Shown piece by piece: positions 13,629 through 15,593 of a DNA stretch of 64,000 nt; the stretch's first letter is position 1; every line of letters starts with the position of its first letter. The stretch lies in the NCBI RefSeq assembly GCF_044324785.1, contig NZ_CP172127.1; one strand, 5' to 3'. The notes below the pieces were generated by a model. The model was not told the DNA's origin. It saw only the letters and a program-made list of their open reading frames with translations, and did not search any database. A program made the translations under genes and the position numbers. Source of the stretch: Escherichia coli. GTDB taxonomy: Bacteria > Pseudomonadota > Gammaproteobacteria > Enterobacterales > Enterobacteriaceae.

Positions 13629-15593
13629 GTGAGCATGGATATAAGCGATTTTTATCAGACATTTTTTGATGAAGCGGACGAACTGTTGGCTGACATGGAG
13701 CAGCATCTGCTGGTTTTGCAGCCGGAAGCGCCAGATGCCGAACAATTGAATGCCATCTTTCGGGCTGCCCACTCGATCAAAGGAGGGGCAGGAACCTTTG
13801 GCTTCAGCGTTTTGCAGGAAACCACGCATCTGATGGAAAACCTGCTCGACGAAGCCAGACGAGGTGAGATGCAACTCAACACCGACATTATCAATCTGTT
13901 TTTGGAAACGAAGGACATCATGCAAGAACAGCTCGACGCTTATAAACAGTCGCAAGAGCCGGATGCCGCCAGCTTCGATTATATCTGCCAGGCCTTGCGT
14001 CAACTGGCATTAGAAGCGAAAGGCGAAACGCCATCCGCAGTGACCCGATTAAGTGTGGTTGCCAAAAGTGAACCGCAAGATGAGCAGAGTCGCAGTCAGT
14101 TGCCGCGACGAATTATCCTTTCGCGCCTGAAGGCCGGGGAAGTCGACCTGCTGGAAGAAGAGCTGGGGCATCTGACAACGTTAACTGACGTGGTGAAAAG
14201 GACGGATTCTCTCTCGGCAATATTACCGGGCGACATCGCCGAAGATGACATCACAGCGGTACTCTGTTTTGTGATTGAAGCCGATCAGATTACCTTTGAA
14301 ACAGTAGAAGTCTCACCAAAAATATCCACCCCACCAGTGCTTAAACTGGCAGCCGAACAAGCGCCAACCGGTCGCGTGGAGCGGGAAAAAACGACGCGCA
14401 GCAGTGAATCCACCAGCATCCGTGTAGCGGTAGAAAAGGTTGATCAATTAATTAACCTCGTCGGCGAGCTGGTCATCACCCAGTCCATGCTTGCCCAGCG
14501 CTCCAGTGAACTGGACCCGGTTAATCATGGTGATTTGATTACCAGCATGGGGCAGTTACAACGTAACGCTCGTGATTTGCAGGAATCAGTGATGTCGATT
14601 CGCATGATGCCGATGGAATATGTCTTTAGTCGCTATCCCCGGCTGGTGCGTGATCTGGCGGGAAAACTCGGCAAGCAGGTAGAACTGACGCTGGTGGGCA
14701 GTTCCACTGAACTCGACAAGAGCCTGATAGAACGCATTATCGACCCGCTGACCCACCTGGTACGCAATAGCCTCGATCACGGTATTGAACTGCCAGAAAA
14801 ACGGCTCGCCGCAGGTAAAAATAGCGTCGGAAATTTAATTCTGTCTGCCGAACATCAGGGTGGCAATATTTGCATTGAAGTGACCGACGATGGTGCGGGG
14901 CTAAACCGTGAGCGAATTCTGGCAAAAGCGGCCTCGCAAGGTCTGACCGTCAGCGAAAACATGAGCGACGACGAAGTCGCGATGCTGATATTTGCCCCTG
15001 GCTTCTCCACGGCGGAGCAGGTCACCGACGTCTCCGGGCGCGGCGTCGGCATGGACGTCGTTAAACGTAATATCCAGGAGATGGGCGGTCATGTCGAAAT
15101 CCAGTCGAAGCAGGGTACTGGCACTACGATCCGCATTTTACTGCCGCTGACGCTGGCCATCCTCGACGGCATGTCCGTACGCGTTGCGGATGAAGTTTTC
15201 ATTCTGCCGCTGAATGCTGTCATGGAATCACTGCAACCCCGTGAAGCCGATCTGCATCCACTGGCCGGCGGCGAGCGGGTGCTGGAAGTGCGGGGTGAAT
15301 ATCTGCCCATCGTCGAACTGTGGAAAGTGTTCAACGTCGCGGGCGCGAAAACCGAAGCTACCCAGGGAATTGTGGTGATCTTACAAAGTGGCGGTCGCCG
15401 CTACGCCTTGCTGGTGGATCAATTAATTGGTCAACATCAGGTTGTAGTTAAAAACCTTGAAAGTAACTATCGCAAAGTCCCCGGCATTTCTGCTGCGACC
15501 ATTCTTGGAGACGGCAGCGTGGCACTGATTGTTGATGTCTCCGCCTTGCAGGCGATAAACCGCGAACAACGTATGGCGAACACCGCCGCCTGA
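13629..15593 (+). CDS. cheA: Chemotaxis histidine kinase CheA (long form); internal start for CheA-short at 13920
   Basis: ORF track 13575..15593; GTG start at 13629 gives [10 protein letters not shown] (654 aa); HPt, kinase and CheW-like domains recognisable. Confidence 0.95.

Follow-up and report, generated by a model that had tools for sequence, protein, structure and literature searches.

The ATG at positions 13920-13922 of the window, the whole 64,000-nucleotide stretch of Escherichia coli DNA analysed here, is identified with a probability of roughly 95% as start(S), an additional site within cheA at which ribosomes initiate in frame on the motA-motB-cheA-cheW mRNA. Initiation at this codon would give CheA-short, and the corresponding coding region (13920-15593; 1674 nt or 558 codons, encoding 557 amino acids plus the stop) lies in the frame of CheA-long and matches the K-12 product NP_416402.2. 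Coordinates refer to the plus strand unless stated otherwise. The start of CheA-short was known before and has its entry in the annotation of the reference genome, and the finding is in this respect correct but ordinary; what is mildly new is the signature of synonymous constraint around the codon, the near-Escherichia-specific Shine-Dalgarno (SD) motif, and the family-wide invariant element upstream.

The flagellar and chemotaxis region of E. coli, flhDC-motAB-cheAW-tar-tap-cheRBYZ, is contained in the window. Within it cheA extends from 13629 to 15593 and encodes CheA-long, of 654 amino acids plus the stop, as established from the translation, the Pfam domains and boundaries that equal those of the RefSeq CDS of strain N3. 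The start codon of the long form, start(L), is the GTG at 13629-13631, and its SD motif GAGGTGA (13618-13624), which overlaps the motB stop codon TGA (13622-13624), is kept in nearly all of the 81 Enterobacteriaceae sequences compared. The Pfam matches of the protein are, in order, Hpt (residues 8-100), CheY-binding (161-223), H-kinase_dim (261-324), HATPase_c (372-508) and CheW (514-640). The host gene is thus an orthologous class I CheA with domains P1-P5, flanked by motB and cheW in the motAB-cheAW operon. Of 5426 complete E. coli genomes, 5378 have a cheA match, with identities of 95-99.4%; the highest value, 99.4% at the nucleotide level, belongs to E. coli N3, and whole-gene identity is below 99% in all but 8 genomes. 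The CheA of the window and that of N3, the closest complete genome, are separated by a single residue difference, R191G. Over positions 1-25000 of the window, no complete E. coli genome among the 5426 reaches 99% identity (best N3 with 98.9%, then strain 042), which indicates that this lineage is poorly represented among complete genomes.

Codons are numbered here from the GTG of start(L), the RefSeq start for both K-12 and N3, and the internal ATG is codon 98, in frame (13629 + 97 x 3 = 13920). The sequence-only reading had named this ATG as the known start of a short CheA isoform that is retained here, and its coordinates and codon number proved exact. By count alone the codon is unremarkable, because cheA contains 18 in-frame ATGs; it is set apart by its predicted accessibility and by the AAGGA motif ahead of it, both described below, and by its exact alignment with K-12 MG1655, for which RefSeq lists two cheA CDS, of 654 and 557 amino acids (the latter NP_416402.2, record 1973360-1975033). 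When window positions 13560-13990 were aligned, the K-12 short CDS began (record position 1975033) in column 361, which is window position 13920, and the two sequences are identical base for base over codons 77-121. The 56 nt at 13885-13940 are also 100% identical in 5372 of the 5378 cheA-carrying complete E. coli genomes. Retention of start(S) is therefore borne out at the sequence level, the surroundings of the site being the same as in K-12. From this identity and the strong purifying selection described below, we infer that CheA-short is probably produced in this strain.

Start(S) was mapped, according to later papers, by Smith and Parkinson in 1980 and by Kofoid and Parkinson in 1991. It was reported in one of these that CheA-short is initiated at ATG-98, that the M98L substitution abolishes the short form, that M98L strains of E. 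coli serve as functional CheA-long-only strains, and that CheA-short is dispensable for chemotaxis (PMC7696710). The internal ribosome-binding site was reported to account for a substantial share of total CheA synthesis (PMC2716512), and cheA is not mentioned in a Ribo-RET preprint. CheA-short begins after residue 97 of the long form and directs CheZ to the poles (PMC7750401, PMC3180615); it also stimulates CheZ, and its homodimers, for want of the phosphorylation site, have no catalytic activity (PMC1447658). In the window, the codon of the phosphorylation site His48 (CAC, codon 48, 13770-13772), a residue invariant in the protein alignment, lies upstream of the internal ATG and belongs to CheA-long only. 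Solved P1 constructs comprise about 131-146 residues, and with the Hpt match at residues 8-100 about 97 of 131 residues, His48 among them, are missing from the short form, in agreement with the earlier statement that it lacks most of P1.

The evolutionary evidence for start(S) comes from cheA of 80 species-level Enterobacteriaceae genomes, which together with the window gave 81 sequences. Seventy-eight full-length genes were aligned by codon, and synonymous-codon entropy was calculated for each conserved, degenerate amino-acid column. A zone of suppressed synonymous variation was found around start(S), at codons ~84-110 (13878-13958), and whether windows of 9 or of 23 codons are taken, the minimum for the gene in the 78 species falls within it. 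The lowest 9-codon windows start at codons 84-102, and the next-lowest at codons 1-2, which is start(L), and at codons 642-646, shortly before cheW. The normalised entropy averages 0.29 over codons 85-107 and 0.62 over the gene, and the depth of the start(S) trough was reached in none of 5000 permutations. Only 10 of the 411 amino-acid-invariant degenerate columns are also codon-invariant; two of these are at codons 7-8, and six lie in codons 91-106 (F91 TTT, L92 TTG, E93 GAA, E100 GAA, Q101 CAG and K106 AAA), where L92 TTG is the sole nucleotide-invariant codon among 65 conserved leucine columns. The further troughs at start(L) and at the cheW ribosome-binding site indicate that the scan detects translation signals. 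All three known translation signals of cheA (the two starts and the ribosome-binding site of cheW) are recovered, start(S) most strongly. A function of start(S) throughout Enterobacteriaceae is thereby supported on evolutionary grounds that do not depend on the literature. The third trough (codons 642-654, window 15552-15593) ends just before the cheW start at 15614 and fits the ribosome-binding site of cheW as well as the translational coupling of cheA and cheW that was reported previously (PMC2716512).

The sequence directly preceding the ATG of start(S) is GAAACGAAGGACATC. It includes AAGGA at 13911-13915, an SD-like motif separated from the start codon by a 4-nt spacer, for which the duplex with the 16S rRNA tail was calculated as -5.4 kcal/mol. 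This value lies within the top ~11% of in-frame positions of cheA. The SD pairing at start(S) is modest, and the spacing is short. The motif is almost Escherichia-specific, because the G that creates AAGGA depends on K95 being encoded by AAG, which is the case in just 8 of the 81 sequences (Escherichia and three others), the rest having AAA. In sequences of the AAA type the duplex amounts to -3.3 kcal/mol, a value matched by 39% of positions in the gene. In most Enterobacteriaceae the pairing is thus no better than background, and SD strength alone is insufficient to explain the use of the site. Predicted accessibility also sets the site apart: by local folding, the region from -20 to +9 of start(S) is the most accessible among the 18 in-frame ATGs and stands at the 95.7th percentile of in-frame positions. 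Further upstream, at -24 to -11 (13896-13909), the multi-species comparison revealed a nucleotide-invariant element, CTGTTTTTGGAAAC, composed of a U-rich tract and GGAAAC, which is identical in 80 of the 81 Enterobacteriaceae sequences despite synonymous freedom. In our reading, this U-rich, A-rich and weakly structured tract would recruit the 30S subunit, perhaps through ribosomal protein S1 or as a standby site, and the SD would be a secondary addition that is enhanced in Escherichia.

The same element may also pair with sequence downstream of the start codon, as the 5' half of a hairpin whose loop would contain that codon. The candidate hairpin (13896-13931), obtained as RNAalifold consensus, MFE and centroid structure, has the arms CUGUUUUUG (13896-13904) and CAAGAACAG (13923-13931) and an 18-nt loop that carries AAGGA and AUG, with a predicted free energy of -7.9 kcal/mol. 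In the RNAalifold structure, codons 90-92 (CUGUUUUUG) pair with codons 99-101 (CARGAACAG), and the 9-bp stem was predicted in 40 of 40 sequences with compensatory changes at no pair; the absence of covariation follows from the invariance of the arms. A repeat search did not report the stem, because one G-U pair is needed and the exact seed is short. Kofoid and Parkinson reportedly noted, in 1991, inverted repeats flanking both starts.

It is put forward as a tentative possibility that the invariant 14-nt CUGUUUUUGGAAAC together with its partner arm CARGAACAG, and not the SD, is the real determinant of internal initiation, acting either as a site for S1 binding or ribosome standby or as a hairpin that holds the start in its loop, and thereby setting the ratio of CheA-long to CheA-short across Enterobacteriaceae. 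If this were true, the Escherichia-specific change from AAA to AAG would represent a lineage-specific boost of CheA-short output, and the U-rich element, as the conserved determinant of start(S) in place of the SD, would offer a testable handle on the long:short ratio.

The nucleotide constraint at codon 98 might also be due to another embedded element, such as a target of an sRNA or RNase, an antisense feature, or a regulatory hairpin that controls the proportion of long to short form. The trough, taken as codons ~81-110, is wider than a ribosome footprint, a 9-bp stem is possible from the invariant codons 90-92 and 99-101, and a minus-strand ORF opens at 13921, all of which speak for such an element. 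However, the trough is centred on ATG98, and there are no Rfam matches in the region. The complementarity of the stem is, moreover, largely imposed by the Leu-Phe-Leu and Gln-Glu-Gln codons: among 2000 synonymous recodings the native sequence is unexceptional both in MFE (p = 0.30) and in exposure of the start (p = 0.42), and the z-score of the whole 123-nt fold, +0.46, gives no support beyond coding-sequence constraint. The stem is also eroded in relatives in which Met98 persists, with 8 of 9 pairs kept in a Serratia sequence and 6 or 7 of 9 in Proteus, Sodalis and one further sequence. An embedded element as the cause of the constraint is accordingly considered rather unlikely, and it is compatible with, not opposed to, the explanation by start(S). 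As an observation on the opposite strand, the palindrome CATG at 13919-13922 gives a minus-strand ATG that opens an 88-aa antisense ORF (13655-13921, minus strand) opposite start(S), which is likely spurious.

The identification of the ATG as start(S) was further weighed against the explanation that Met98 is merely a conserved structural residue of P1 helix D, whose ATG is unused as a start in this organism. The peptide around Met98 is indeed highly conserved as protein, Met98 occurs in 81 of 81 Enterobacteriaceae sequences, and a wider protein search and alignment found it in Serratia, Proteus, Sodalis, Pantoea and Halomonas/Vreelandella as well; the modest SD match at start(S) would fit this explanation too. 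In relatives outside Enterobacterales and Halomonas, however, position 98 is leucine, as the protein alignment shows for Azotobacter, Alcanivorax, Halochromatium, Pandoraea, Achromobacter and Bordetella. Leucine in these gamma- and beta-proteobacteria suggests that methionine is not required by the P1 fold, in agreement with the M98L strains that function with CheA-long only (PMC7696710). Nor can conservation of amino acids explain the frozen synonymous sites around codon 98, and the context of start(S) is identical to that in K-12, where the start was mapped. A purely structural role of Met98 is for these reasons highly improbable. Two CheA N-terminal fragments from the database (P0074 and P0100) are near to Salmonella up to residue ~92 and run into unrelated sequence at about residue 93; their appearance is that of pseudogenes or frameshifted copies, with the break immediately ahead of start(S).

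Even less credence is given to a short product from another in-frame start, for example ATG81 (13869; site at 13861-13871), which is directly preceded by GAGGTGAG, or from both sites: the anti-SD duplex at ATG81 is stronger than that at start(S) (-6.5 vs -5.4 kcal/mol) and Met81 is kept in 80 of 81 sequences, but the SD-like codons 79-80 vary freely at synonymous sites (GGT/GGC/GGG/GGA and GAG/GAA), accessibility reaches only the 65th percentile, and codon 98 is the start given both in the literature and by RefSeq, with M98L eliminating the short form (PMC7696710). The unconstrained codons and the lower accessibility led us to reject ATG81, which is probably unused, as the start of the short form. 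An internal promoter giving a separate short transcript is not indicated and was rejected after a promoter scan, which found nothing sigma-70-like at 13300-14100 and just one perfect sigma-28 site in the window, that of the tar promoter at 16204-16230; the expression "alternative transcriptional start site" in one paper (PMC3180615) appears to be loose wording. The sigma-28 consensus itself reads TAAAGTTT-N11-GCCGATAA on the plus strand and presumably represents the tar promoter, and it is abutted by an Rfam match to the C0465 sRNA on the minus strand (16137-16214) in the cheW-tar spacer. Rfam matches elsewhere in the window are the sRNAs MicL (29473-29780, plus strand, 368 bits) and ES036/CssrF (33714-33755, minus strand, 47.7 bits).

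For the function of start(S), the following mechanism is proposed. Some 30S subunits would bind directly around codon 98, in a region that offers AAGGA, the 4-nt spacer and AUG, with the U-rich tract upstream. Initiation there would yield the 557-residue CheA-short, which would have residues 98-654 in common with the kinase and would be devoid of P1 helices A-C and of the phospho-accepting His48. According to the literature, the P1 remnant of the short form (helix E, with L123, L126 and C120) is exposed and binds the tip of the CheZ hairpin, and this binding recruits the CheY-P phosphatase to the receptor array and stimulates it. All three residues of CheA, C120, L123 and L126 (helix E, within residues 118-128), are present in the window, and C120 has a role in CheZ binding by CheA-short. 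The interface between the two proteins was described as L123 and L126 of CheA with the aromatic tip of CheZ (PMC7750401, PMC3180615). The gene of this binding partner (PMC7750401, PMC1447658), cheZ, is intact in the window (21916-22560; 214 amino acids by translation), and its product has the apical aromatic residues W94, W97 and F98 and the catalytic residues D143 and Q147. The hairpin tip of CheZ is R-W-D-D-W-F (residues 93-98, window 22192-22209); "Phe-97 and Trp-98" as quoted in PMC7750401 does not match the order W97, F98 of the window, which looks like a numbering slip. CheA-short is a classic example of internal initiation, by which a single gene encodes two proteins, and it tethers the CheZ phosphatase to the receptor array. 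For annotation, the consequence is that two products should be listed for cheA in the window, following the RefSeq record of K-12; beyond that, the identification is of little importance.

Among known systems, the closest is start(S) of cheA in E. coli K-12 itself (b1888, NP_416402.2; short isoform of UniProt P07363), which has the same codon 98, the same 557-aa product and the same operon, motAB-cheAW. K-12 and the window show no difference at start(S) and a few synonymous differences upstream in cheA; residue differences between the two CheA proteins presumably fall in the P1-P2 linker, P2 and P4 regions. In Salmonella and the other Enterobacteriaceae, Met98 and CTGTTTTTGGAAAC are common to all sampled genera, as in the window, whereas most genera have AAAGAT where the window has AAGGAC and consequently a weaker SD (-3.3 vs -5.4 kcal/mol). 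Long and short CheA were reportedly found by McNamara and Wolfe in 1997 to be co-expressed across Enterobacteriaceae. S. typhimurium was also named as a producer of CheA-short (PMC3180615). The CheA proteins of Azorhizobium, Thermotoga and beta-proteobacteria, which have no short form, share the homologous Hpt fold of P1 and the His48 motif, but the equivalent of Met98 is leucine in the beta- and gamma-proteobacterial examples and is absent in Azorhizobium (PMC7750401). Bacteria without CheA-short either have no CheZ or position it in another way. The two forms of IF2 from infB (alpha and beta), SsaQ and CcmM follow the same principle, in which one gene read in one frame gives two products and the shorter one lacks an N-terminal domain (PMC11005335). 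These genes and their functions are unrelated to cheA, and CheA-short differs from their products in that it gains a CheZ-binding surface that is buried in the long form.
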